From the IMG/VR virus record IMGVR_UViG_3300030620_000112, positions 1 to 60,404 of that record: a stretch of DNA of 60,404 bases. One strand, written 5' to 3'. The stretch comes from a virus (taxonomy: Duplodnaviria; Caudoviricetes). Every line of letters starts with the position of its first letter. Position 1 is the stretch's first letter. Below, piece by piece: positions 1 through 52,416 of the stretch. Both the position numbers and the translations under genes were made by a program. The notes beneath the pieces were generated by a model. It saw nothing but the letters and a program-made list of their open reading frames with translations, was not told the DNA's origin and did no database searches.

Positions 1-1
1 C

Positions 2-133
2 TGGGCTCAGGTCTGGGCTCAGGTCGGGGATCAGGTCTGGGATCAGGTCAGGGGTCAGGTCAGGGATCAGGTCTGGGATCAGGTCGGGGATCAGGTCAGG
101 GATCAGGTCAGGGATCAGGTCGGGGCTCAGTGG
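2..133 (+). repeat. 12-nt tandem repeat (DGG GNT CAG GTC), ~11 units, coding [WGR][DAG]QV
   Basis: Directly visible: tgggctcaggtc, ggggatcaggtc, tgggatcaggtc, agggatcaggtc... Confidence 0.95.
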
Positions 134-5252: not shown

Positions 5253-5493
5253 CCCGACTGAGATCGTGTGCCCGCAGTGTTTCACCGCGGCGTTGGAGGA
5301 GTGGATCGTGACCGAACTGGCGTCCCGGCCGGCACCGACCATGCCGGACAGGGAGACGCTGATTGGGCGGCTGAGGAACGGGCTGGAGGATGCGTGGGTC
5401 GAGGGCAATGAGCCGGTCAGTGAGGAGGCCATCGACACGCTGGCGGCGTACGTCATGGCCCTGCTGGTCGAACATGACTGGCGGCGATCGTGA
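5218..5493 (+). CDS. hypothetical protein
   Basis: ORF filling gap; GTGA overlap with next gene. Confidence 0.5.
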   Translation: MTAATTFNAVCDPTEIVCPQCFTAALEEWIVTELASRPAPTMPDRETLIGRLRNGLEDAWVEGNEPVSEEAIDTLAAYVMALLVEHDWRRS

Positions 5494-6239
5494 GGATTGT
5501 CGAACACGATGGCTGGCCGGGAGGCGTCTCTGACGGGTTCGCCGGCGTCTGTGCCGTCTGTGCCGTCAAGCCAGTGATCGACTACACGGTCAGCGACTTG
5601 GACTGGTTGCTCGTCCCAGAGAAGTACCGCCGCGACGTCGTGTGCCTCGGGTGCTTCTTCGAGATGGGCGGCAGGCCCAGGATGATCGAGCGCCTGATGG
5701 TGTCCACGCCGACCGAGACGCTGGAGATGGAACCAGCCCTGCTCTGGAAGTGGCGCCGCCCTGACCCGCTGGCCGAACTGGTGGCCGTGTCTGAGGAAGC
5801 CGGGCTGTACGAGAGCACGGCGGGAGCCAACCCGCTGCGCGACCAGGTGCCGCGCGGTCGCAGCACCGATGTGTTCCCAGATGTGAACGTGGACCCGGAG
5901 ACCATGCCGCCACCACTGATCCCGGAGCCTGCTTCACCGGCCTACAACCGGGACGAGTTGGTCGAGGCGTTCATCGAGGTCTACGACGAGGCCGCGCGCG
6001 TTGCGGCTCTGTCTGAACCCGTCGAGTTCCCGCGCCCCTCGTCGCTGGTCATGGCGCGTCACGCACGACTGAGGGCCGGGCTGCTTGCCACGTCGGAGCC
6101 TGCTTCACCGGCCTACGACAGGGACGAGGCGATGGCGGCAGTGCTCGACGTCTTGGAGGACGCTGACTCCCCGACGGAGCTGGTCGTGCTTGCCGAGCGC
6201 ATCGTTGACAGCCTCTGGGAAAGGTTCTCGCATGGGTAA
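5490..6239 (+). CDS. hypothetical mosaic protein with internal EPASPAY.RDE duplication
   Basis: 249-aa ORF; 23-bp exact repeat at 5923 and 6094. Confidence 0.6.
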   Translation: MRIVEHDGWPGGVSDGFAGVCAVCAVKPVIDYTVSDLDWLLVPEKYRRDVVCLGCFFEMGGRPRMIERLMVSTPTETLEMEPALLWKWRRPDPLAELVAVSEEAGLYESTAGANPLRDQVPRGRSTDVFPDVNVDPETMPPPLIPEPASPAYNRDELVEAFIEVYDEAARVAALSEPVEFPRPSSLVMARHARLRAGLLATSEPASPAYDRDEAMAAVLDVLEDADSPTELVVLAERIVDSLWERFSHG

Positions 6240-6720
6240 GCGAACCTACGCAGACATGACCTACGCCGAAATCATGCTGGGAGCGCGAGAGCGGATCTTG
6301 TCGAAGTGCTTGAATGTGGACGATCCTGATGCGTGCTGGGAGTTCACTGGCAACCGCGCGTGCTTTGGGCACGGGATGCTGTTCTTTCGTGGCGCTGCGA
6401 TGCACGCCTCAAGGGTCATGCTTGCCACATACGGCGCCCCGGTCGATGACTGCATGGTCTGTCACAGATGCGGGAATCCTCCGTGTTGCAACCCCAAGCA
6501 CCTGTACTTGGGGACCCAGCAGGACAACATGGACGACATGATCTCTCACGGCAACACGGTTGCGAAGTTGTCGAGCGAGCAGGTGCGGGCCATCCGGGAG
6601 CGGGCTGCCAGTGCCTCGAACGTCGTAGTCGCTGACGAGTTCGGGATCAGTTCGAGCCACGTCTCCAACATCGCCCTACGCAAGAACTGGGCACATGTCG
6701 AGGACTTGAACGATGCCTGA
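6232..6720 (+). CDS. HNH homing endonuclease with C-terminal HTH
   Basis: CWEFTG, VCHRCGNPPCCNPKHL..GT..DN..D, KLS.EQV..IR...A.EFGIS. Confidence 0.85.
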   Translation: MGKRTYADMTYAEIMLGARERILSKCLNVDDPDACWEFTGNRACFGHGMLFFRGAAMHASRVMLATYGAPVDDCMVCHRCGNPPCCNPKHLYLGTQQDNMDDMISHGNTVAKLSSEQVRAIRERAASASNVVVADEFGISSSHVSNIALRKNWAHVEDLNDA

Positions 6721-9401: not shown

Positions 9402-10208
9402 CTAGTTGGCTGACCGGGACTGCAGGATGGCGACCAACTGGGCTGCGGGGTTCTTCCCCAGCGCCGTCCGGATCAGGCTGGCCTCCGCCCCGGTGAAGGT
9501 CAGCGACAGCCGGTAGATCCCGGTCGCCTCACGCCGGATCGCCTCCCGCTCCGCCGGAGATGCTGCCGCAGCCAACTGGCTCTCCCGCTCACGCAGGGCA
9601 GTCAAGGCGGCCGGTGTCGCAGCCGTCATGGTCTGTTCCCCGCGCGACCCGGTGAACTCCGATGCCTCGGTCGTCGTCCGCTCATCGAGCCTGCCGCTGG
9701 CTGGCTCCCATGCCTCCGAGAACTCGTCGCCGGCCTGCAACTGCGGCGCAGGGATGTCGTCCAAGATCCGCTCGAGGTCACGGTCCGACAGGATCAGGCT
9801 GTCCGCCGCCCACTCGAGCGCCCCCAACTTCTCCAAGTCCCGGAAGATCGCCGCCGTCAACTCGACGTCCTCCTCCCCACGCGCCCGGTTGTGACGCAGC
9901 GTGGCGATCCGCGCCTGCTCCGGAGACATGTCGACGAACGCCACGGGCACCGTCTCCATCCCCATGTGTGACGCAGCCCGCCAACGATGCTCACCGTCCA
10001 CGATCGTCCGGGACGAACGGATCGCGATGATCGGCTGGGTGAACCCGTCCTCCTCGATCGACTTGACCAGCATCTCGAAGTGCCGGTCGTCCTGACGGTT
10101 CGGGTTGTAGTCGTTCGCGTTGATCGAATCGATCGGCACGTACTCGATCGACAGCCGCTCGAGCGACTTCGCCGTCTTGGCGACCTTCCTGCTGCCCTTG
10201 TCAGCCAT
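9402..10208 (-). CDS. ParB/Srx N-terminal domain protein (IbrB-like), paralog 2
   Basis: NDYNPN, L..SI.EDGFTQPI, IVDGEHRW, ATLRHNRARG. Confidence 0.85.
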   Translation of the reverse strand: MADKGSRKVAKTAKSLERLSIEYVPIDSINANDYNPNRQDDRHFEMLVKSIEEDGFTQPIIAIRSSRTIVDGEHRWRAASHMGMETVPVAFVDMSPEQARIATLRHNRARGEEDVELTAAIFRDLEKLGALEWAADSLILSDRDLERILDDIPAPQLQAGDEFSEAWEPASGRLDERTTTEASEFTGSRGEQTMTAATPAALTALRERESQLAAAASPAEREAIRREATGIYRLSLTFTGAEASLIRTALGKNPAAQLVAILQSRSAN

Positions 10209-10884
10209 CCTGCCTCTCCGGTTGTCCTGCGCCGCCCTCGACGAGCCGGTCGATGGTCACCGCCATCCGGCGGGGGTTCAACTCCATCCCGACGAACGTC
10301 CTTCCTGCCGCGTGTGCGGACACCGCAGTCAATCCACGACCCGCACAAGGGTCGAACCACGTCGCCGCATCGACATCCCCGATCACCGCAGCCGGCGTGT
10401 CCTCGTCATCCAGCCCGGTCAGGTCCAACACGGGCGCGGGCCCGAACGAACCGAGCAGACACGGCTGCTTGCGGTAGTAGGTGATCTGCCACTGTTGAGC
10501 AAGCGGATGGCCGTGTGCCTCGCAAGCCTCCACCATCACGTCGTACGGGCCACCCTCCGCCCGGCCCACCACCGTCCCCTCGATGAACCAAGGGCCGGTG
10601 GGGCACACGACCGCGAGCGTCGAGGTCAGGTCGTAGCAGAACTGACGCCACCGCTCGGCGGGGCTTCCGGCCGCCTTGGGCAGGCTGGCCTTGGTGCGGA
10701 ACGACGCCTCGTTGCCAGAGTTCCACGGCGGGTCGACGTACACCGCGTCAGCCGCGAACGGGAACCGTCCGGCGTCAGTGTCGTGCAGGTCGTCGCACAG
10801 CAGCCGGTGTGGACCGACCGACCACAGGTCGCCGGGCCGGACTTCCCATCGGTCGCCCGCATCGCCGTACGACCAGTCAGCCAC
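10201..10884 (-). CDS. N6-adenine/N4-cytosine-type DNA methyltransferase (beta-like motif order)
   Basis: GDLW..G.HRLLC.D; catalytic YVDPPW precedes SAM motif FDPCAGRG...GMEL; GTG10884 overlaps upstream stop. Confidence 0.75.
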   Translation of the reverse strand: MADWSYGDAGDRWEVRPGDLWSVGPHRLLCDDLHDTDAGRFPFAADAVYVDPPWNSGNEASFRTKASLPKAAGSPAERWRQFCYDLTSTLAVVCPTGPWFIEGTVVGRAEGGPYDVMVEACEAHGHPLAQQWQITYYRKQPCLLGSFGPAPVLDLTGLDDEDTPAAVIGDVDAATWFDPCAGRGLTAVSAHAAGRTFVGMELNPRRMAVTIDRLVEGGAGQPERQDG

Positions 10885-11596
10885 GCGACCACTCGGAAAG
10901 GATCGTGATGAGCGCTTCTGCGGGACGACGCCCAAGAGCCTGCTTGACAAGGGTGGCCTCCTCGCCATGGAAGGACAGTTCAAGTCGGAACATCCCGGCC
11001 GCCTCCTGCTGCGACTGCGCCCAGTCGGCCTCGGTCTGGCCTGACGCCAACTTCGCCTCCAACTCGCGCTGCGCCTGCAACGCTGCCGCGGACAGGGCCG
11101 AGTCCACCGTGGCGCCATCCTCCGACGAACCGATCGACTCGGTCTCGTCGAGGAACGCGACCTCGCGCAGCATCGCGTCCAACTCGACCTGATCCAGTTT
11201 CAACTCGTCCACCGCCCAGTCCACTGCCCCCAACCTCTCGAGGTCACGAAGCACCGCAGCCGCCATCAGGTAGTCCTCCTCCCCACGGGCCCGGTTGTGA
11301 CGCAACGTGGCGATCCGGGCCTGCTCGGGAGTCATGTCGACGAACACGACTGGGACCTCGGTGATCCCCAACTCGTTTGCTGCGAGCCACCGGTGCTCGC
11401 CGTCGACGATCTGGTTCGACTCGCGCAGCACCACGATCGGCTGGGTGAACCCGTCGGTCCGCATCGACCGCAGCAGCAGGTCGAAGTGGTGCGGGTCCTG
11501 CCGGTTGTTGTTGTATTCGTTGGGTTGCACCGAATCGGTCGGCACGTATTCGACGGTCAACTTCTCGAGCGTCGCGAGGTTCTTCTCAACAGCCAT
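10877..11596 (-). CDS. ParB/Srx N-terminal domain protein (IbrB-like), paralog 1
   Basis: PNEYN.N, DGFTQPI, IVDGEHRW, ATLRHNRARG; RBS gaggaag. Confidence 0.85.
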   Translation of the reverse strand: MAVEKNLATLEKLTVEYVPTDSVQPNEYNNNRQDPHHFDLLLRSMRTDGFTQPIVVLRESNQIVDGEHRWLAANELGITEVPVVFVDMTPEQARIATLRHNRARGEEDYLMAAAVLRDLERLGAVDWAVDELKLDQVELDAMLREVAFLDETESIGSSEDGATVDSALSAAALQAQRELEAKLASGQTEADWAQSQQEAAGMFRLELSFHGEEATLVKQALGRRPAEALITILSEWSRG

Positions 11597-11606
11597 CAGG
11601 GCTTCC

Positions 11607-12884
11607 TCACCATGTTGGAGGGCCGTTCCAGTTCCCGGCCCCTTCACGGAAGAACTCGGGCTCCACTGCCGCACCGGCCAACTGGCCCTTCATCCCGAAC
11701 GGGTCGCCGTTGTAGTAGTTCTTGGCGATGTTCGCCCACGACGAGTGGTAGCCAAGGCACTGGGCGCACGATGCCGAGTCCGGTAGTGGATGTGACGAGT
11801 GGTGTGCGTGACGTGACAGGGCACGATCCACGATCAGCCGGACCCGCTCGTACAGCCACGCCGGCACCTTGTCGGGGTCGAGCATCTCCCGCTCGACCGC
11901 CTGCTGCCATGTTTCCCCGTCACGCTTCAACAGCGACACGGCCCGCTTCCCGAACTTGGCTGCCGTCCGTAGCCCTTCGATCCTGTTGCACACCTTCGAC
12001 CACCACTGCGGCCACGCCTGCGACGCCATCTTCAACTTTCCGATCGACGCAGCGTTCAACGTCGGTGGACCGACCCGCTGGTCCTTCGCCGCAATCCCCA
12101 TCCGTGCCATCACGTCGTAGGAGTGGTTGTAGTCGAGGTCGTGCTCCTTGATGAACCGCCACACGTCCGAGGTGGTCCAGTCGTAGATCGGCCGGCACTT
12201 GTAGCCGCCCCACTCGGTCGGCGCCTTGGTGATGTAGCCCTCGGACGACAGCAGCCCCATGTAGCGGGCCCGAGACTCCTCGACCCGCAATCCCATGCAG
12301 GTCATCAACCGTGCCCGCGGAGTGTCACGCCCCTCCTCCGTCCTGATCCGCTTGAGGATCTCGTCGCGCGTCAGGTCGTCCCAGTCGTCCCAGCCGACCA
12401 GCCCACCCAACGGCAGCGTGTCCACCGACGAGATGTAACCGATGTGCTGGGCAGGAACCCGGAACGCCTCGAGCCCCGGCAGTTGCGGCTCGTCCCCGTG
12501 ACCCGGATACGACCGCACCCACCGATCCTCGCACAGTGGATCGAACGTCCACCAGTACGGCTCGAACCGGTTGAACGCGTTCACGATCGGCTGCCCGGCG
12601 ATCATCCACTGGAACCTGACCTCGTCGGTCCGTTCGGCCACCCGCCGCAGATACTCGAATGTCCCCGGATACATCACCTCCTCGTCCCGCATCACCACGT
12701 CCACCGGTAGCCGGCCGGCGTCACGGGCAGCGAGGATTGCCATCTCCATCACGCAGGTCGAGTCCTTGCCCCCCGAGATCGACACGCCGATCCGATCGCC
12801 CCGCTCGTACAGCGTGAACAACCGGTCGTAGGCGGCCGTGAACACGTCCAGACCCATCGGCCGCCGAGACTTGCTGCCGCTCAC
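11607..12884 (-). CDS. PAPS-reductase/PP-loop family protein (IbrA/DUF3440-like)
   Basis: SISGGKDS PP-loop, RDEE, GLR.EES..R, PIYDW...DVW, YN..YD, QRVGPP. Confidence 0.85.
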   Translation of the reverse strand: MSGSKSRRPMGLDVFTAAYDRLFTLYERGDRIGVSISGGKDSTCVMEMAILAARDAGRLPVDVVMRDEEVMYPGTFEYLRRVAERTDEVRFQWMIAGQPIVNAFNRFEPYWWTFDPLCEDRWVRSYPGHGDEPQLPGLEAFRVPAQHIGYISSVDTLPLGGLVGWDDWDDLTRDEILKRIRTEEGRDTPRARLMTCMGLRVEESRARYMGLLSSEGYITKAPTEWGGYKCRPIYDWTTSDVWRFIKEHDLDYNHSYDVMARMGIAAKDQRVGPPTLNAASIGKLKMASQAWPQWWSKVCNRIEGLRTAAKFGKRAVSLLKRDGETWQQAVEREMLDPDKVPAWLYERVRLIVDRALSRHAHHSSHPLPDSASCAQCLGYHSSWANIAKNYYNGDPFGMKGQLAGAAVEPEFFREGAGNWNGPPTW

Positions 12885-18614: not shown

Positions 18615-20870
18615 GTGCCCGACGTCGCCTCACAGGCCACCATCGCCGATGCGCGACAGAACCGGTCGCTGATCGGACGTCAGCAGCGGGCGTGGCGTTA
18701 CTACGGGCTTCCCAAGGAGAACACGCACAGCAGCGGTGACGTCGACGGCATGTCAGCTGCGATCGGCGAGGTCCGATACGTCGTCGGTTGGATGGCCGAG
18801 CAGATGTCGCGGCTGCGTTGGCTGGTCACCATCAACGGCGAAGACTCTTGGTCGGTGGTCACGCCCGACGGGGAGGAGATCTCGACCGCCGACGTAGACG
18901 ACGACGGTGAGGCATTCGAGGATCAGGCTGCAGCGTCGCAACAGCTGCTGCGGATCGTGGGATGGGACGACGAGACTGTCCGGCAGATCACCACCAACCT
19001 GTTCGTGGCCGGAGCACTCGACTACGTCGCCGATCCCGGGCCCGGAGGATCGGACCAGCCCGACCCGGACATGTGGCAGGTCGTGTCGACCATCCGCCCT
19101 GACCGGGAGAAGATCCTCAAACGGGCCCTGTTCTCGGTGAAGGGCCTGTGGCCGCACGCCGCGGACCCGAACGAACCCGACGCCCCACTGTTCGGGGTGC
19201 TGGACGTGTGTGCCACAATCGAGTGGCTGTCGAAGCTGTCGTGGTCCCAGTCGGCCAACCGTGTTGCGATGAACGGCTGGCTGGCGGTGGCGGACGGGCT
19301 CGAGTTCGGCGACGGCGGCGACTTCTACGTGCGGATGAACCAGATCACACGGGCGATCATGCGTGACCCGATGATGGGTGCGTCGCCTGCGGTCCTGCGG
19401 GGCGCCAAGGAACTGACCGAGCCGGGCGCCGGCGGCGGCCCGAAGGGGATGTCCTACCTGATCCCCAACCGGCCGTACGACGCGACGATCGACCGTCGCC
19501 TCCAGCACGCCATCCAGCGGCTCGCCTACGGACTGCCGATCCCGCCCGAGATCCTGCTCGGAATGACCGCCACCAACCGGGCCGTGGCGTATCAGGTCGA
19601 GGAGAGTTCGTACCGTGCCCACGTCGAACCTCCGGCGCAGCTGGTGTCTCGCGTGGCCGAAGGGGCGCTGGCGAAGGTCTTGCCGAGTGTCGGCGAGATC
19701 CTCGTCGAACCGGACCCGACGCTGCTGCTGGCGCGTCGACATTCGGTCGCCGACGTCAAGGACGGCTGGCAGATGGGGCTGATCGGGGCGCGGTTCGCCC
19801 GCGAAGTGCTCGGGGTCCCGGAGGATGCGGCCCCGACGCAGGAGGATCTGGTCCTGCTGGCGTTCATCCGGTCGCTGACCGGGCAGGTCCCGCGCGAACA
19901 GGACCCCGCCTCCCGGGCGGGCAACGAGGCGGTGCAGGCATCCGTGTTCCTGCACCCCCTCGTGGGCCGGTCGGGCGCGCCCAACGGCGACGGTGCGGGC
20001 CGACCTGAGGCGGTGTCTGCCGCATCGGCGGTGGAGGGCGATCTGGATGATCTGGGCAGGACGCTCGCGGAGGTCGACTTTCAGGTCCGCTCCGAGTTGA
20101 ACGGTGCGGCGGCGATGGCGGTCGAGCGTGCCCGCGACCGGATCGGGGCGGCTGCGCGGAGCCGACGTGACCTGCGGGACGAGATCCCGTCGGACGTCCC
20201 GAACGGCGAGGTTGCAGCGACCGTCGGGATGCAGCTGCTCCGCGACGTGGGGGTGGATGTCGATCAGGTGGTTGCCGACGCTATGGAGCCTCTGGCGGAC
20301 TGGTGGACTGGCCGGCTCGGGACGGCTCAGGAGTCGTTGACGGCCCTGTTCGGTCAAGGGGCGGACGCCCCGGTCGTGGAGCCCGACTGGGATGAGACGG
20401 ACCTGACTGCGTCACGGGACATGCTCGTGTCCGGGCTGATCGCGCAGACGATCGGACAGGCTGAACAGAAGCATCCGCCCGGCCCTGACCCGGACCTGCT
20501 GCGGTCGGTGATGGCGGTCGCCGGCGGTGAGCATGACGGCGCCATCGTCGCGGCGCTCACTCCCGCAGGCTGGACGCCGACCCCGGCGGCACCCGGCGGA
20601 CTTGGCGTCGGGGTCAAGACGATGCAGGCGTTGAAGGACAACGGCATCGTCCACACCGGCTGGCGGTGGCTGTGGAGACCGGGCGTGTTGGGGGGAGAGT
20701 TCGAACCGCACCGTTCGCTGGGTGGGACCTTCCATCCTCTCGATGGCATCCCGACCCCGACTGGATATGCGCCCGGGATGCCGAACGCGCCATGCATGTG
20801 CGACCTGCAGCCGGTGCTGCGGCGTGCCTCGGGCGTGTTCGCCCCGCAGCAGGTGGCGGCCGGTGCCTGA
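18615..20870 (+). CDS. portal protein with C-terminal MuF-like extension
   Basis: Position after TerL; AW.YY..IGEVRY...W, R.A.GL.IPPE.LLG...N motifs; C-terminal W.W..H..L.G...C.C. Confidence 0.75.
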   Translation: MPDVASQATIADARQNRSLIGRQQRAWRYYGLPKENTHSSGDVDGMSAAIGEVRYVVGWMAEQMSRLRWLVTINGEDSWSVVTPDGEEISTADVDDDGEAFEDQAAASQQLLRIVGWDDETVRQITTNLFVAGALDYVADPGPGGSDQPDPDMWQVVSTIRPDREKILKRALFSVKGLWPHAADPNEPDAPLFGVLDVCATIEWLSKLSWSQSANRVAMNGWLAVADGLEFGDGGDFYVRMNQITRAIMRDPMMGASPAVLRGAKELTEPGAGGGPKGMSYLIPNRPYDATIDRRLQHAIQRLAYGLPIPPEILLGMTATNRAVAYQVEESSYRAHVEPPAQLVSRVAEGALAKVLPSVGEILVEPDPTLLLARRHSVADVKDGWQMGLIGARFAREVLGVPEDAAPTQEDLVLLAFIRSLTGQVPREQDPASRAGNEAVQASVFLHPLVGRSGAPNGDGAGRPEAVSAASAVEGDLDDLGRTLAEVDFQVRSELNGAAAMAVERARDRIGAAARSRRDLRDEIPSDVPNGEVAATVGMQLLRDVGVDVDQVVADAMEPLADWWTGRLGTAQESLTALFGQGADAPVVEPDWDETDLTASRDMLVSGLIAQTIGQAEQKHPPGPDPDLLRSVMAVAGGEHDGAIVAALTPAGWTPTPAAPGGLGVGVKTMQALKDNGIVHTGWRWLWRPGVLGGEFEPHRSLGGTFHPLDGIPTPTGYAPGMPNAPCMCDLQPVLRRASGVFAPQQVAAGA

Positions 20871-20954: not shown

Positions 20955-21401
20955 ATGACAGATTGGGTAGTGCTAGTGCGCGAGCGCATTCCGGACGGAT
21001 GGAGGATCGGCGACGCTGACGGGCTCGTTTACGCAACGGCCGTCGGTCACCCACAGGTTGGCGTTTCGGTTTCTCTGCATCAGCCGTATTTGCGGGTGGA
21101 TGCCGCCAAATCGTTGGCGGCATCCATGATCGAGATTTTCGCCGACGAGAACTCCAGCGATTGGTCGTCTCCGGTAGTGACAAGCCAGAATGGAGGGTGG
21201 CAATGCTTCGATGAGGATGGGCTGGTTGCGACCGCGTTCATTGCGGGGCCGGATCAGATCGCCCTCTACATCCATCAGCGGGGTCATCTGAGCGGGGACC
21301 GTGCGTGCGCCGTCGCTGAGATGCTGGCCGCCGTCTGCGCGGCCGTAATGCTCGCGTATGAGGTCAACCGTCTCTACAGAGTGCCGAAGGTCGCCGCATG
21401 A
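20955..21401 (+). CDS. hypothetical protein
   Basis: RBS aaggagg. Confidence 0.55.
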   Translation: MTDWVVLVRERIPDGWRIGDADGLVYATAVGHPQVGVSVSLHQPYLRVDAAKSLAASMIEIFADENSSDWSSPVVTSQNGGWQCFDEDGLVATAFIAGPDQIALYIHQRGHLSGDRACAVAEMLAAVCAAVMLAYEVNRLYRVPKVAA

Positions 21402-21853: not shown

Positions 21854-23857
21854 GTGACGTCTGTGACGGTTTCGATGCCGTGCCACGGGGGCACGCTTGA
21901 CACGCTGGCGGAGGCGGCCGGTTCGGTGCTGGCACAGACCCACGAGGAGATTGAACTCGTGGTCACCAACGACGGCGGCGATCCGGCCGCGGTTCGGACG
22001 GCGCTTGGGGCGGCCCTTGACGACGGGCGTGTCGTGGTCGTCGATGTGCCGGTCTCAGCCGGCCGCTATGCCGCCGACGCCGCGGTGCTGGCCGACTGCG
22101 ACACCGACTGGTTCTGTGTCCACGACGCCGATGACCGGTCCGACCCGGGCCGGATCGAGCGGATGCTTGCGGCAGCGACCGACGGGGTCGAGGCGCTGAT
22201 CGGCGGGTACACGTCCCATCGGATCAACGGGTCCACGAACCTGCGCAGACCCCAGCCGAGTCAGGTGACCGACCAGCGGCTGGGGCATGTCACCCAGCAG
22301 TGCTGCATCATCTGGCGCACCGAAGCGCTCCGTCGCATCGGTGGGCCGCATCCGGGCTGGCGGTTCGCATGGGACACGATGCTGATCGGCCTCACGATCC
22401 GGCATCTGCGATGGGCGGCTGTCGATGACTACGGCTACCACCACATGCAGCGGCGTGGGAGCCTGTCGGTGGCGTCACCGTCTGGGATGCAGTCCCAACC
22501 GCGCAGGCAGGCGATCAACGTCCGGTCGCGGCTGTGGCGGGCAACCGCAGGGATGCAGGCCGAGGAAACGGGCGTGTGGCTGCTGGCTCAGCCGCCGCCG
22601 CAGACGGCCGGGGTCGCCCCAAGCCGTGGGGAAGCGGTCAAGGCGGCCCCGGCCCTCGGACCGCGCCGGCTCGTGGTGGTGACGAGGGTCGGCTGCCGGT
22701 TCGGGACCGGACAGGTCCCCAGCGAAGAACGGGTCCGCTGGTGGGCGCGCCTCGCCTCGGAGGTTGCTGCCGGCGGCATCCCGGAGCAGGCCCGGTGGGT
22801 GTGGACCACCGCACCGGAACATCTCGAACTCGTCCGGACGCTGGCTCCCGAGACGGCGACGGTCATGCCGCAGGACACCCGCGAGATCCCCAATGTCGCC
22901 GGTGGCAGGTTCACGGTGGTCCGCTGCGACGCGGATGACCGCTGGTTTCCGGGGGCGCTCGACGTCGAGATGCTCACGTCGCTTCTGCCCCGCACCGCGG
23001 TCGCCTACCCGTGTGGGCGCCAGATCGACCTCGACTCGGGGGTCGGCCGGGCGCTGGACTACCGGGGCCATCACCTGCCGCCGTTCCTTGCGGTCACGCA
23101 GGATCAGAGGGCGATGATGCTCGACGTCGGCGGCCAGCACACCGAAGTTGGCAGGGGACGCAACGTCCGGCAGATCCTCGAGCCGTCTTGGCTGCAGCTG
23201 GTCGGCGGATGGAACACGGCGAACCGGCCCAACAAGTTCGGCCGAGACGACCGCTGGCCCGTCAACCAGATCATGAAAGAAGCGTCGATGACCAACGACA
23301 TGCTGGCGTTCGAGGGCGAACTGGACCGGCTCGCCGCCAGACACGGCACCGACAAGGGCTCGGCCCCCGGCAGGGGCCTGTTCCCGAAGCGGTACACGCG
23401 GATCTACGAGGCCCTGCTTGCCCCGAGACGTGACGAGCCGTTGCGGCTGCTCGAGTTGGGGGTGCAGGCGGGGTCGTCGATCCGCATGTGGCTGGACTAC
23501 CTGCCGGACGCGAAGGTTGCCGGTGTTGACATCAAGCCGGTTCCGAACCAGTTGAAGCAGGCGCCGGGTCGGTTGCGGTACCGGCACTTTCAGGGCGAGC
23601 AGGCTGACCCGAAGGTGCTCGGTGCTGCGCTGGACTGGCTGGGCGGCGAGGCCGACGTGGTTGTCGACGACTGTTCCCACAGGCACGCCGATCATGTCGC
23701 CTCCCACGGAATCCTTTGGCCGAGGCTCGCCGCCGGAGGCTTCTACGCCTGCGAGGATCTACACGCAGCCCCAGCCAGCGTGGATTGGCTGAAAGACTTG
23801 GGCGCCGAGTTCCACGCGGAGGACCGGCTCGCGATCCTGCACAAGCCTTCCGGCTAG
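21854..23857 (+). CDS. multidomain protein: GT2 glycosyltransferase + second GT-like domain + SAM O-methyltransferase
   Basis: VTVSMP..SVLAQT..VTNDG..HDADD (GT-A); middle RCDADD; C-terminal HGTDK, LLELGV..G.S...W...GVDI, VVDDCSH, GGFY..ED. Confidence 0.8.
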   Translation: MTSVTVSMPCHGGTLDTLAEAAGSVLAQTHEEIELVVTNDGGDPAAVRTALGAALDDGRVVVVDVPVSAGRYAADAAVLADCDTDWFCVHDADDRSDPGRIERMLAAATDGVEALIGGYTSHRINGSTNLRRPQPSQVTDQRLGHVTQQCCIIWRTEALRRIGGPHPGWRFAWDTMLIGLTIRHLRWAAVDDYGYHHMQRRGSLSVASPSGMQSQPRRQAINVRSRLWRATAGMQAEETGVWLLAQPPPQTAGVAPSRGEAVKAAPALGPRRLVVVTRVGCRFGTGQVPSEERVRWWARLASEVAAGGIPEQARWVWTTAPEHLELVRTLAPETATVMPQDTREIPNVAGGRFTVVRCDADDRWFPGALDVEMLTSLLPRTAVAYPCGRQIDLDSGVGRALDYRGHHLPPFLAVTQDQRAMMLDVGGQHTEVGRGRNVRQILEPSWLQLVGGWNTANRPNKFGRDDRWPVNQIMKEASMTNDMLAFEGELDRLAARHGTDKGSAPGRGLFPKRYTRIYEALLAPRRDEPLRLLELGVQAGSSIRMWLDYLPDAKVAGVDIKPVPNQLKQAPGRLRYRHFQGEQADPKVLGAALDWLGGEADVVVDDCSHRHADHVASHGILWPRLAAGGFYACEDLHAAPASVDWLKDLGAEFHAEDRLAILHKPSG

Positions 23858-23918
23858 GATGGGTGCAGCCCGCGACGCTTGCACGTCCGGGCTGCCGACC
23901 GACTTCTGGAGAGTCGAT

Positions 23919-24515
23919 ATGCCGAAGCGTACGTGTTCCATCGACGGGTGCGGACGGATCGTGACCGCCCGCGGGTGGTGTCGCAGACACTACGAACGGT
24001 GGCGGAGCCACGGCGACCCGATCACGCTGGTCACGGCGCCCCGGGGTGCGTTGCCCGCATTCATCCGAACGGTGTTTGACGGCACTGCCCCGCACGAACC
24101 AAACGGCTGCGTGCTGTGGCCGTTCGGCATCGCAGGGTCCGGCTACCCGTTGGTCGAGTGGGAAGGCGAGAAGCGGACCGTCGGTCATCTCGTGCTGGAA
24201 CACTTCGCTGGTCCGCGCCCGTCCGACAGGCACACGATGGGCCACGCCCCACATGAGGTCTGCGGGAACCGGCACTGTGTCGCGCCCGAGCACTTGTCGT
24301 GGCAGACTTACGCGGAGAACCTGCGTCAGGCAGCCGACGTCGACAGGACGATAAGCGGGGAGCGTCATCATGCAGCGCGGATCAGCGACGATCAGGTGCG
24401 AGACGCGGTCAGGCGAGTTCAGGCCGGAGACCATCCTCGTAGTGTTGCAGAATCCCTCGGGGTCTCGATCACGTCGATCTACGATTGGTCCAGCGGCAAG
24501 CGCCGAGCCGTGTGA
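23919..24515 (+). CDS. HNH homing endonuclease
   Basis: CSIDGC..ARGWC..HY.RW..HGDP zinc finger; C.LWP, H..CGN..CV.P.HL.W.T..EN; C-terminal HTH. Confidence 0.85.
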   Translation: MPKRTCSIDGCGRIVTARGWCRRHYERWRSHGDPITLVTAPRGALPAFIRTVFDGTAPHEPNGCVLWPFGIAGSGYPLVEWEGEKRTVGHLVLEHFAGPRPSDRHTMGHAPHEVCGNRHCVAPEHLSWQTYAENLRQAADVDRTISGERHHAARISDDQVRDAVRRVQAGDHPRSVAESLGVSITSIYDWSSGKRRAV

Positions 24516-24619
24516 TCCATGCGACGCCTGCGTCGGTCGACTGGTTGAAGGGTCTTGGCGCTACGTTTGAGGCCGAGGACCGCCTCGCGATCCTGCACAA
24601 GGAGCAGCAGCATGAGTGA
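24515..24619 (+). pseudogene. orphaned duplicate 3' end of the GT/methyltransferase gene
   Basis: Reads IHATPASVDWLKGLGATFEAEDRLAILHKEQQHE* versus LHAAPASVDWLKDLGAEFHAEDRLAILHKPSG* at 23759-23857. Confidence 0.85.
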
Positions 24620-25073
24620 CGAGACCAACGGACACGAGGGCGTCGAGGATCAGGGTGTGGGTGGTACGGACGTCTACCCGGACGCCGAGTTCACGACCGG
24701 CGCAGGCCTCGGTGAGCACGACGACGACCCGTGGCTGGGAGGGCTACCCGACGACGGGGAAACCGAGGTCGAGGTGGACGTCTCGATCCCGCGCCTGACC
24801 GTGGCGGAGTTCCGGGATGCCGGGTTTCTGCAGGAGGCCAATCGGCTGTTCTTCCACCCCCGCGGTCTTGCGCTGGAGGTTTCGGAGCAGACCGACGAGG
24901 ACGTCGTGTTCTTCACCGGGGCGGTGTGGGACTACCGCGACGACCCGGAAGGCGTGGTCTACGGGCCGGGGATCATCGACCCGGACAAGATCGCACGGGT
25001 CGCCGACGAGCGTCGCCGGCATGTCGACGCACGCAAGGAACTGTTCGGGTCCGAGGTCCAACCGCCCGAGTGA
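24612..25073 (+). CDS. hypothetical phage protein
   Basis: EFR..G.LQE.NR.FFHP.GLAL, WDYRDDPEG. Confidence 0.7.
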   Translation: MSDETNGHEGVEDQGVGGTDVYPDAEFTTGAGLGEHDDDPWLGGLPDDGETEVEVDVSIPRLTVAEFRDAGFLQEANRLFFHPRGLALEVSEQTDEDVVFFTGAVWDYRDDPEGVVYGPGIIDPDKIARVADERRRHVDARKELFGSEVQPPE

Positions 25074-25080
25074 TCTCCAC

Positions 25081-25168
25081 CAGATCGCCTGAGAGCGGCG
25101 CAGGCTGGCGCCCATATGCCGGCCCCCGGACCTCCCGCATGTCCCGGCAGGCGAGGTCTGGTCGCGAT
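25081..25168 (+). repeat. dispersed ~85-bp element, copy B
   Basis: ATCGCCT(25084)..CCCATATGCCGGCC..GGTCTGGTCGCGA(25155). Confidence 0.7.
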
Positions 25169-25759
25169 CCTGCGGGTTCTGAGGCGGGCAGGCTGCTGGT
25201 GACGGGGACCGGTCGGTGTGGAACCCACACGGTCGCCAAGGCCCTCACCGACGCCGGGCTGCCGTGTGGCCATGAGACGGCCGTGACCCAACATGGTGTC
25301 AAGGCCAATGGATGGCGAGCCGAATCCTCATGGGTCGCGACCCTGCACCTGCCCGTCCCCGACTGCTGGACGGTGCTGCTGGTGCGGCATCCGGCGAGGG
25401 TTGTCGCCTCACTGGCACAACTGCGACGGCAGGTCAACCGCAATGAGGGGTTCGATGACAGAGACCCCGGCGGGCTGCGTGCCCGATGGTCGCCTGCGAG
25501 TTGGTCGCTGGAGATGCGTCTGGCAGCGTTCTGGGTCGGCTGCAACCGGGAAGCGGCGGTCCATGCCGACGAGATCGCCCGGATCGAGGACCTCGACGTC
25601 GACATCCTGACGGGCTGGTCACGGAAGGTCGGCGGCCCCGACGTCACCGTCATGCCCGCCCCGCAGCACGTCCACAACCCGCCGCCGATCGACTGGGACT
25701 ATCTGTCGAAGGTCCCGGGCTTCGAGTCGGCAGCCCGACAGTTCGGCTACCAGCCATGA
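25139..25759 (+). CDS. sulfotransferase-like P-loop protein
   Basis: LLVTGTGRCGT (5'-PSB-like), CGHE, LLVRHP..VVASL (3'-PB-like), RIEDL; start uncertain. Confidence 0.65.
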   Translation: MSRQARSGRDPAGSEAGRLLVTGTGRCGTHTVAKALTDAGLPCGHETAVTQHGVKANGWRAESSWVATLHLPVPDCWTVLLVRHPARVVASLAQLRRQVNRNEGFDDRDPGGLRARWSPASWSLEMRLAAFWVGCNREAAVHADEIARIEDLDVDILTGWSRKVGGPDVTVMPAPQHVHNPPPIDWDYLSKVPGFESAARQFGYQP

Positions 25760-26457
25760 CATGCCCACGGTGCGCCGGCGATGGCCTGCATGTCGCGGTC
25801 GTGCACGATCAGCGTCGCCCTGACAGTTGGGTCGAGCAGATCGAGGAACGGCTCGGACACGTCCACGTCAACCTCGAACGAGGCAAGGGACGCTGGGACA
25901 CCCACCGCATGGCGCTCGAGGCCGGCTCCGCGTCCGGTGCACCGACGATGCTGATGCTGCAGGACGATGCCGTCGTCCCCGAACGTGGCCTGCGCGAGAC
26001 ACTGGAGGCCATCGGCGAACTGGCTGGTGCTCAACCCGTCTCGCTGTACGTGGGTGGCCTGCGACCGAGGGAACTGCTCGTCCGACGGGCAGTCGATTCG
26101 ACGCCGGACGGGACGCTGCTGCGGGGTCCGGGCCCGTGGTGGGCGGTCGGGCTGCTGCTGCCGACCGGGAACCTGCTTGACCTGCTCCCGATCGCCGACC
26201 GGGCACCGACCCCGAACGTGGACCACAAGTTGGAGCGGGCCTACCGCCGCTCGGGGCTGCACTGCCTCTACACGATCCCGTCGCTGGTCGACCACAGGCC
26301 CGAAGCCGAGAACCCGTCGATGATCCGCGGGAGGGCAGGCGACCGCAGGGCCCACCGGTTCGTCGGCCATGACGCCTCCGGGCTCGACTGGACCGTCGGC
26401 GGGTCGATCACGCGTGGTCCGACGGTGGACACGACGGCGAAGGCGCAGGTACGGTGA
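25756..26457 (+). CDS. GT-A fold glycosyltransferase
   Basis: LMLQDDA (DxD-like), SLY.G, WAVG, PSLVDH, as in actinophage glycosyltransferases. Confidence 0.7.
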   Translation: MTCPRCAGDGLHVAVVHDQRRPDSWVEQIEERLGHVHVNLERGKGRWDTHRMALEAGSASGAPTMLMLQDDAVVPERGLRETLEAIGELAGAQPVSLYVGGLRPRELLVRRAVDSTPDGTLLRGPGPWWAVGLLLPTGNLLDLLPIADRAPTPNVDHKLERAYRRSGLHCLYTIPSLVDHRPEAENPSMIRGRAGDRRAHRFVGHDASGLDWTVGGSITRGPTVDTTAKAQVR

Positions 26458-51768: not shown

Positions 51769-52416
51769 GTGGATGTCAGGCAATGCAGCCATCCTGACGG
51801 GTGTAAAAGAACGGTTGAATCCAGAGGGCTGTGCCTCATGCATTACATGCGCCTCCGGAGAACCGGCGAGTTGGGGCCGGTCGGATCAACTAGGGGAACG
51901 AATCACGGGCAATGCATCCATCCTGATGGGTGCGAAAGATCGGCACGCACTCGGGGCTGGTGCACCATGCATTACCAGAGGATTTACAAGGCGGGAGACC
52001 CCGGACCAGCGAAAGCCATGAAGCGCCGGCGAACTGCGTATAAGGATGCCCCTCCCGGATTTTGGGTCTGCTGCGAATGTGGGGAGACGAAGGCGCTCGA
52101 TCAATTTCACCGGGGCTCGAATCGAACTGGGAGGCAGTCGGCTTGCAAGGATTGCCAATCTCTCCAGAACCTTGCGCGCATAATCGGCATCCCCGTCGCA
52201 GAGTTGAGAGGATTTCGTGACTCGCAGCCGCAGCACTGCGCGATCTGTGCCACAACGACGGACCTCGTCATTGACCACGACCATGACACGGGGAGGCTTC
52301 GTGGCGTACTGTGCCGCAGACACAACTCAGGGATCGGCATGTTTGACCATGACCCGGATCTTCTGCGGACAGCGGCAGACTGGTTGGGGATAGATGTCAC
52401 GGCATCGGCTACTTGA
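51769..52416 (+). CDS. endonuclease VII-family homing nuclease with N-terminal zinc-finger repeats
   Basis: C..GC.R...RG.C.MHY twice; CAIC....L.IDHDH.TG..RG.LC...N.G.G; lower GC. Confidence 0.85.
   Translation: MDVRQCSHPDGCKRTVESRGLCLMHYMRLRRTGELGPVGSTRGTNHGQCIHPDGCERSARTRGWCTMHYQRIYKAGDPGPAKAMKRRRTAYKDAPPGFWVCCECGETKALDQFHRGSNRTGRQSACKDCQSLQNLARIIGIPVAELRGFRDSQPQHCAICATTTDLVIDHDHDTGRLRGVLCRRHNSGIGMFDHDPDLLRTAADWLGIDVTASAT

Follow-up and report, generated by a model that had tools for sequence, protein, structure and literature searches.

The stretch of soil-phage DNA analysed here, called the window throughout, is the whole of the IMG/VR virus record IMGVR_UViG_3300030620_000112 (60,404 bases; CheckV completeness 77%; G+C 67%). 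It contains a gene for a fusion of a family 2 glycosyltransferase, a middle region and a class I methyltransferase, and the 3′ end of this gene (hereafter the host gene) is present twice. The first end, copy A, is continuous with the rest of the open reading frame (ORF) and is translated with it. It is followed by an HNH endonuclease gene and then by the second end, copy B, an orphan that runs into a downstream gene (Table 1). Copy A, which is linked to the endonuclease, is presumed to be an imported end, and copy B is presumed to be the displaced resident end, now untranslated.

Two ends of one gene

The domain content of the host protein is recognizable from sequence comparison. Residues 6–134 match Glycos_transf_2 in Pfam (E 1.1e-15), residues 533–635 match Methyltransf_24 at 26.2 bits, just under the cut-off of 26.3, and a PHROG methyltransferase family matches the protein at 1.2e-20. 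An AlphaFold2 (AF2) model of the last 185 residues, built from an 8-sequence alignment, has a predicted local distance difference test score (pLDDT) of 91. Copy A corresponds to model residues 154–185, which form a helix and the final two β-strands of the methyltransferase fold (pLDDT 91–98 for this block). Judged from the model, the host gene needs the duplicated segment, as an insertion at this point without replacement would lose the helix and both strands. The host gene stays whole because the upstream copy supplies these last elements of the fold.

Copy B starts at the A of the HNH stop codon TGA (24513–24515), and the offset between the two copies is 756 bases (3 × 252). Aligned with each other (23759–23845 vs 24515–24601), the copies run without gaps for 29 codons, with 24/29 residues and 60/87 bases identical. 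The differences are unevenly distributed. Of the first 20 codons, 14 differ synonymously and 5 non-synonymously, with 26 of 60 bases changed; among the last nine there is a single synonymous difference, with 26 of 27 bases identical and a longest identical run of 18 (Fisher P 1e-4 against the first 60 bases). Beyond the aligned region the tails differ, copy A ending in PSG and copy B in EQQHE before the respective stop codons, and the 60 bases preceding copy A are unrelated to those preceding copy B. The similarity of the two copies is far beyond chance: the orphan peptide finds the other copy by tblastn with E ~1e-11 (in a small database), and the 27-base patch is recovered by self-BLAST of the window with E 5e-5.

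Much of this layout had been noted in a preliminary description of the same DNA, namely that the last ~30 codons of the glycosyltransferase/methyltransferase gene occur twice, that the orphan starts with the final base of the HNH stop codon and overlaps the next ATG with its own stop, and that the first halves differ synonymously while the later part is near-identical. The sequence and alignment bear out each of these points, coordinates and peptides included. The further claim, that the endonuclease gene is flanked by a functional replacement 3′ end on one side and by a displaced orphan on the other, is supported by the continuity of the host ORF and by the alignment.

Table 1. Position and nature of the features at the duplicated-end locus (window coordinates)
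Feature	Position	Strand	Description	Basis
Host gene	21854..23857	+	667-residue glycosyltransferase (family 2)/middle region/class I methyltransferase fusion; ends in copy A	ORF, Pfam, PHROG, AF2 model
Copy A	23759..23857	+	Translated 3′ end, 32 codons and TAG; LHAAPASVDWLKDLGAEFHAEDRLAILHKPSG	Continuous with ORF 21854–23857
Hairpin	23865..23895	+	GC-rich, 12 pairs, one bulge, 6-base loop; just past the host stop codon	RNA fold
GGAGAG	23908..23913	+	Putative Shine-Dalgarno-like site, 5 bases before the HNH ATG, half within a predicted 6-pair hairpin (23900–23916)	Sequence and fold
HNH endonuclease gene	23919..24515	+	198 residues and TGA; N-terminal Cys/His motif, HNH, putative C-terminal helix-turn-helix	PHROG, phage-record relatives, motif alignment, profile
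Copy B	24515..24619	+	Orphan 3′ end, 34 codons and TGA; IHATPASVDWLKGLGATFEAEDRLAILHKEQQHE; out of frame with the HNH gene	Sequence and alignment
AAGGAG	24599..24604	+	Putative Shine-Dalgarno site of the downstream gene, 7 bases before ATG 24612; formed by the Lys-Glu codons of the orphan	Shine-Dalgarno consensus
Downstream gene	24612..25073	+	153 residues, unknown function; start overlaps the orphan stop	ORF; PHROG 3954 (unknown function), 5.8e-6; 75 related loci in viral contigs

Across the first 20 codons synonymous divergence per site (pS) is >1 and thus saturated, while non-synonymous divergence (pN) is 0.23. When 26 changes were placed at random in these 60 bases, five or fewer residue changes were obtained in 0/20000 trials. 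Both copies have therefore been shaped by selection on the protein, and, as their divergence here is mainly synonymous, the two ends evolved in different genomes, each as coding sequence.

This pattern bears directly on whether the second copy could have arisen in place, by insertion of the HNH gene with a long target-site duplication or by replication slippage, the copies then diverging within this genome. Such an origin would explain the direct repeats that flank the insert and the persisting identity of 26 of the last 27 bases. However, drift in an untranslated orphan would affect every codon position, whereas here synonymous sites are saturated with a pN of 0.23, and the 34 codons of the orphan contain neither stops nor indels. 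Furthermore, the identity of synonymous codons lies below the level expected for independent codings (see below), which descent from a shared ancestor cannot yield. Duplication in place is consequently regarded as very improbable.

The spelling of the two copies is unusual near the junction. Within the first 20 codons, a boundary picked after the data had been seen, only 1/14 degenerate codons for the same residue is spelled alike, compared with an expected 6.6 with the codon usage of the phage (34 ORFs, 13,283 codons; P 6e-4), 6.6 with local usage (P 4e-4) and 4.25 with uniform usage (P 0.038). In this segment the copies are spelled more differently than independent codings of one peptide would be. 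Each copy contains 6 rare codons per 20, at different positions, against a background of 13%, and 6.8% of 20-codon segments reach 6. The G+C content at third codon positions (GC3) of the two 20-codon segments is 0.75 and 0.70 vs 0.85 in the gene body, values that are unexceptional at this segment length; 23% of such segments have 15 or fewer of their 20 codons ending in G or C, and 12% have 14 or fewer. The 27-base block at the far end could be the product of a short gene conversion between the copies, or a conserved block that serves as a recombination arm.

Comparison with 15 homologues, which are relatives of 32–62% identity and not empty alleles of this phage, places copy A within the natural variation of the family. 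A Pro within three residues past the last strand is present in 8/15, as in the active copy (...HKPSG), while an ending like ...HKEQQHE is found in 0/15. At 4/5 positions where the copies differ, the residue of the orphan also occurs in natural homologues (2–3/15 each). By this comparison copy A resembles a normal natural allele of the family rather than an artificial-looking recoding. The term "recoded", used for the C-terminus in the preliminary description, therefore holds in so far as synonymous differences near the junction exceed chance, but not in the sense of a purpose-made recoding. The first codon of the orphan, ATC (Ile), spans the junction; at this position Leu is found in 13/15 homologues and Ile in 0/15, suggesting that the breakpoint lies inside this codon.

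At its other end, the orphan is closely tied to the downstream gene. Its stop codon overlaps the ATG at 24612 (ATGAGTGA), and overlapping gene junctions are usual in this genome, for example at 21398/21401 and 25756/25759. Because the orphan holds the predicted Shine-Dalgarno site and overlaps the start codon in this familiar manner, it looks like the native partner of the downstream gene, and its last bases are probably still in use as the downstream ribosome-binding site.

The insert and its endonuclease

The segment between the copies comprises a 61-base spacer with a hairpin, the GGAGAG site and a 198-residue ORF. RNA folding of 23846–23935 gives −38.8 kcal/mol (z −2.16 vs shuffles). No T run follows the hairpin at 23865–23895, which was not called by the terminator scan. 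The scan of 23400–24900 for sigma-70-type promoters and terminators returned 0 promoter-like and 0 terminator-like sites, and an earlier proposal that TAGGAT acts as the −10 box of the HNH gene was not upheld.

The ORF encodes a protein that matches 11 PHROG HNH or endonuclease families, the best at 1.6e-14. Phage records with relatives annotated as HNH endonuclease number 276, and in 62 of them the match extends over 80% or more of the protein; the full-length ones are 28–33% identical. As the alignments of these relatives begin at residue 3–6, the start codon was placed at 23919 and not at the ATG at 23859. In an alignment of four sequences (this protein, two annotated phage HNH endonucleases and a second HNH protein encoded in the window), H109, N117 and N134 are invariant, together with C115, C120 and H125. 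A profile of these four sequences matches I-HmuI (PDB 1u3e) with E 6e-4, across the HNH motif and the C-terminal helix-turn-helix region, making it the closest solved relative by profile. The C-terminal region (residues 174–211) also gives weak Pfam matches to HTH_Tnp_1 and HTH_23, with E 0.003–0.009 and under the cut-offs. A phmmer search of the protein against the PDB returned no meaningful match, and NCBIfam holds no family for it or for the downstream protein. The GC3 of the HNH gene is 0.77, vs 0.84–0.86 in neighboring genes. By the motif alignment and the profile match, the nuclease motif is intact and of I-HmuI-like HNH type.

Further HNH-related sequences are found in the window. The second HNH gene (6232–6720, + strand) encodes HNH_3, at 26.3 bits and above the cut-off, together with a helix-turn-helix, and its product is 23–26% identical to the HNH protein studied here. 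Its start overlaps the end of an upstream ORF (5490–6239) that has an internal 35-base repeat (5923–5957 and 6094–6128; 94% identical) encoding EPASPAY(N/D)RDE twice. Two adjacent stretches at 51778–52002 (+ strand) resemble the Cys/His-rich N-terminal motif of the studied protein (52–54% over 26–31 residues; E 2e-4 and 0.003), a motif that also repeats in loci L079 and L080.

I-HmuI is the intron-encoded HNH nicking endonuclease of Bacillus phage SPO1 and resides within a group I intron. No such intron was detected here, and the sequence similarity is remote. A search of 23000–25300 against Rfam, with E up to 1, found no intron family; the only match was to an unrelated small RNA (E 0.54). 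As the host ORF ends in TAG and the HNH gene lies in another frame with its own start, the insert is read as a free-standing HNH gene and not as an intron or intein. The endonuclease had already been described as intron-less, and the Rfam result, the reading frame, the HNH motif and the I-HmuI profile match all agree with this.

The offset between the copies, being a multiple of three, does allow 23759–24514 to be excised with the frame kept, and an intein-like element is present elsewhere in this phage group. It might thus be supposed that the insert is removed after transcription or translation, as a group I or II intron, an intein or a ribosomal bypass element, and that the protein in fact ends with the orphan sequence. 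In addition to the lack of an Rfam intron family, the host stop codon and the separate frame of the HNH gene with its own Shine-Dalgarno site and ATG, there are no intein block residues at the boundaries, and the upstream copy already completes the fold. Removal of the insert is therefore considered extremely improbable.

Relatives of the locus

Searches of viral and metagenome collections identified a sole close relative of the window, one contig of 42,810 bases. The two sequences show 0 differences over 23744–25272, a block that starts 15 bases left of the duplication, while 11 differences are found in the 430 bases to the left of this block, the last at 23742–23743, 16 bases from the duplication. 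An identical block starting at the edge of the duplication fits a recent exchange of the cassette with a short left conversion tract, although it is only suggestive of this. To the right, the window and its relative, otherwise 98–100% identical, diverge by ~12% in a patch at 25273–26250, which touches two ORFs without a Pfam family (25139–25759 and 25756–26457). The identical blocks on both sides of this patch point to a mosaic exchange adjoining the locus.

The same contig differs from the window at a second place. In the counterpart of a 751-residue ORF (18615–20870), the relative has a 792-base in-frame insert (L081:1999–2792), at a position equivalent to window 19604–19608. The first residue of the insert is Cys, it contains a LAGLIDADG-like motif, and it ends ...HN and is followed by Ser; it resembles an intein that contains a homing endonuclease. 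The window represents the empty allele for this insert (...QVEE/SSYRAH...). As the intein-like insert is present in the relative and absent from the window, endonuclease elements appear to be polymorphic or mobile in this phage group.

Beyond this contig, homologues are distant. The nearest, P0002, is 57–59% identical to the host protein and matches copy A at 22/29 and copy B at 20/29 positions, which does not decide between them as the native end; the next nearest in protein searches is P0019 (46%). Scans of viral contigs with the host protein found 1 locus, in the near-identical relative, as compared with 75 loci for the downstream protein and 3 for the HNH protein, and the host gene adjoins none of these loci except that of the close relative. 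Among the 80 retained of 255 methyltransferase-family relatives, the best apart from the close relative is 49% identical, and the studied HNH gene is found with 0/79 of those other than the close relative. Scans of metagenomes found only the same 42,810-base contig, and scans of genome contigs found nothing. No phage record matched the locus by megablast; when the host protein was compared with these records by tblastn, 4 Mycobacterium phage records were found, at 37% identity and in the methyltransferase domain only. In the searched contigs the 27-base block occurs only in the close relative. A comparison of the orphan peptide with longer proteins gave 3 candidates, none of which scored, which is weak evidence.

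Nine sequencing runs hold part of the locus, and four of these were examined in detail. No contig joining across the cassette was found in the four. Run X3, from another soil study, covers 22997–23681 and 24809–24959 at a depth of 2–4 with nothing between; this gap was considered as an empty allele and rejected, being a low-depth hole without a contig joining across it. Run X4 has some depth over the HNH gene. In run X2, from the source sample, one contig fits the window from 24574 on, precisely the first position of the 27-base block in the orphan. The 17 letters before 24574 match neither copy and are open in the orphan frame (F-E-P-L-T-L, then EDRL...), so this contig may represent a third allelic form of the gene end, with the 27-base block in common.

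The mosaic structure of the phage group raises the question of a passive recombination scar. In this case, one illegitimate crossover between two related co-infecting phages would have joined a left parent, with the ...HKPSG end and an ordinary intergenic HNH gene, to a right parent that contributed everything from the middle of the gene end onward, and the HNH gene would be a bystander that does not target the host gene. Such an event yields the same final layout. It is in keeping with the alternation of blocks with 0% and ~12% divergence between window and relative, and with the intergenic position of relatives of the HNH gene in other phages; the family-typical K-P tail of copy A would be the left parent's own. 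However, the junction falls exactly at the HNH stop codon on one side, and in register within a conserved coding segment on the other (756 = 3 × 252), and a random crossover does not predict the synonymous excess near the junction. A passive scar is thus held to be unlikely.

Proposed origin and known counterparts

We propose that a homing-endonuclease cassette probably brought a diverged natural allele of the 3′ end of the host gene to this locus, displacing the resident end. The mobile unit would be the 756 bases at ~23759–24514, comprising the diverged ~30-codon 3′ end, the spacer with its hairpin and the I-HmuI-like HNH gene with its own ribosome-binding site. The nuclease would nick or cut HNH-free alleles near the ...CED/L(I)HAT... 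junction, and repair would then copy the cassette from an HNH-bearing genome, with the left arm pairing in the gene body and the right arm across the orphan and downstream gene. When the cassette was first established, its right end would have been attached by an illegitimate join. The chimeric gene would escape targeting, plausibly because it differs at 13 of the first 30 bases past the junction and because the old site has been divided. As a fragment, the resident end would be pushed downstream, where it may persist owing to the recency of the event and to the use of its last bases in translation of the next gene.

Several observations weigh against this proposal. The excess of synonymous differences depends on the choice of boundary: across all 29 codons, 9/23 degenerate codons for the same residue are identical, which is unremarkable. 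The near-identical 27-base block is not predicted by a simple model of a foreign allele, which needs added gene conversion or a conserved block to account for it. The assignment of the nuclease has weak points of its own, in that Pfam HNH_3 scores 16.2 bits, under the cut-off of 24.8, and the AF2 model of the protein is poor (pLDDT 54), with helices at 157–191. P0002, which is cut at the contig end, ends ...LHKP, and the family commonly ends in K/R-P, so that the active-type end of copy A could be the ancestral one for this gene. The cassette in the sole close relative is identical to that in the window, and the two sequences are likewise difference-free at 21900–23313, outside the block that begins at the duplication. 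Finally, an HNH-free allele or a donor was found in none of the viral, metagenome and genome contigs, phage records and protein collections searched, so that both mobility and the assignment of the native end are presumptive.

Engineered "cleave-and-rescue" and "home-and-rescue" drives, which are synthetic, Cas9-based insect systems, link a nuclease to a recoded, uncuttable copy of its target. The linkage of nuclease and uncuttable target copy would be comparable at this locus, where the arrangement is natural. It is interesting to speculate that the locus is itself a natural cleave-and-rescue drive in a phage, in which the spelling of the carried end has been selected to be unlike the target, although we regard this as rather unlikely. 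Under such selection, the dissimilar spelling would both give immunity to the nuclease and keep the flanking repeats from recombining, and the 27-base block would be a conserved recombination arm common to several alleles in the population. Crossing over in this block would swap gene ends, or would remove the nuclease gene, leaving behind an allele that is immune and nuclease-free. The gene would then have a hypervariable terminus, comparable to the 3′ part of yeast FBA1.

Two ways are usually given in which homing endonucleases limit damage, namely residence within introns or inteins and placement between genes. A third route, in which the endonuclease lands in coding sequence and carries a replacement for the part it severs, is documented in fungal mitochondria and in yeast, and the displaced-end origin that we favor would follow this route.

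In yeast, the accessible text on the WHO elements at the aldolase gene FBA1 describes a functional unit of a nuclease gene and a resistance-conferring 3′ region upstream of it (Coughlan et al. 2020, eLife, PMC7282813). In the model given there, the downstream fragment acts as a homology arm. Strong divergence between the alleles is confined to the sequence past the cut site, and WHO6 was demonstrated to cleave with allele specificity (PMC7282813). As in the present locus, the nuclease gene lies between a full-length target gene with an element-borne 3′ end and a fragment that is the displaced former 3′ end. In contrast, WHO proteins are intein-like with a zinc finger and operate in eukaryotic meiosis, whereas the protein studied here is an I-HmuI-like HNH in a phage. 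The phage locus has one element and one orphan and no cluster, its orphan also carries the putative ribosome-binding site of the next gene, and cleavage and specificity like those of WHO6 would here be predictions.

A similar order of foreign C-terminal end, endonuclease ORF and native C-terminal end, with the inserted end expressed, is described for the mORF "gene hybrids" of fungal mitochondria, in Allomyces macrogynus atp6 and in Glomus atp6, atp9, cox2 and nad3 (Beaudet et al. 2013, PMC3630166). Partial C-terminal duplications of cob and atp6 adjoining LAGLIDADG or GIY-YIG ORFs have also been reported (PMC6279837). The combination of low DNA identity with high protein identity is shared, with 63.5% and 91% in Glomus atp6 (PMC3630166) and 69% of 87 bases and 83% of 29 residues in the present case. 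The mORFs differ in being of LAGLIDADG or GIY-YIG type, sometimes fused in frame to the host gene, and in residing in organellar genomes, as opposed to an HNH gene here; their native ends were identified from endonuclease-free relatives, none of which was found for the phage locus. By analogy of layout, the cassette may be seen as a working analogue of the WHO and mORF elements, not as a member of their protein families.

Among phages, the closest parallels are in the T4-like group, where intronless homing is known for the free-standing SegF, SegG and MobE (PMC2988022). There too, a free-standing HNH or GIY-YIG gene adjoins a conserved gene that is cut in endonuclease-free relatives, and spread involves break repair with co-conversion of flanking markers, with regulation by upstream transcripts and hairpins (PMC2988022). 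The T4 examples differ, however, in being intergenic or in splitting a gene into two working pieces, as in Aeh1 nrdA and T4 gene 60/39 (PMC2988022). In the accessible text of this review the word "duplication" has 0 occurrences, and a replacement end with an orphan is not described. Passages on duplication, remnants and C-terminal ends in recent literature on phage homing endonuclease genes likewise describe no displaced gene ends, and no account of gene-end replacement by an endonuclease cassette in phages was found in the portions of the open-access literature that were searched.

The cassette is probably a phage, HNH-type case of a known class, that of homing elements that replace a gene end, and the layout seems to be undescribed for phages. 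The details added to the class by this locus are the orphan, probably kept in part for the ribosome-binding site of the next gene, the synonymous excess near the junction that is gone 60 bases on, and the shared 27-base block. Should the arrangement prove general, cassettes of this kind would regularly give rise to chimeric phage genes and orphan gene ends, as well as to local hypervariability and to annotation errors in which small "ORFs" are displaced ends, and they would provide natural models for rescue-type gene drives.

Two repeats elsewhere in the window were also observed. The paralogous ORFs at 9402–10208 and 10877–11674 (both − strand), which flank an ORF at 10201–11118 (− strand), have a common 73-base stretch that is 93% identical (9867–9939 and 11273–11345), and they contain an IVDGEHRW motif that we take to recall ParB-like nucleases. 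The left end of the window (1–130) consists of a tandem ~60-base unit, 7–70 being 92% identical to 67–130 by self-BLAST.

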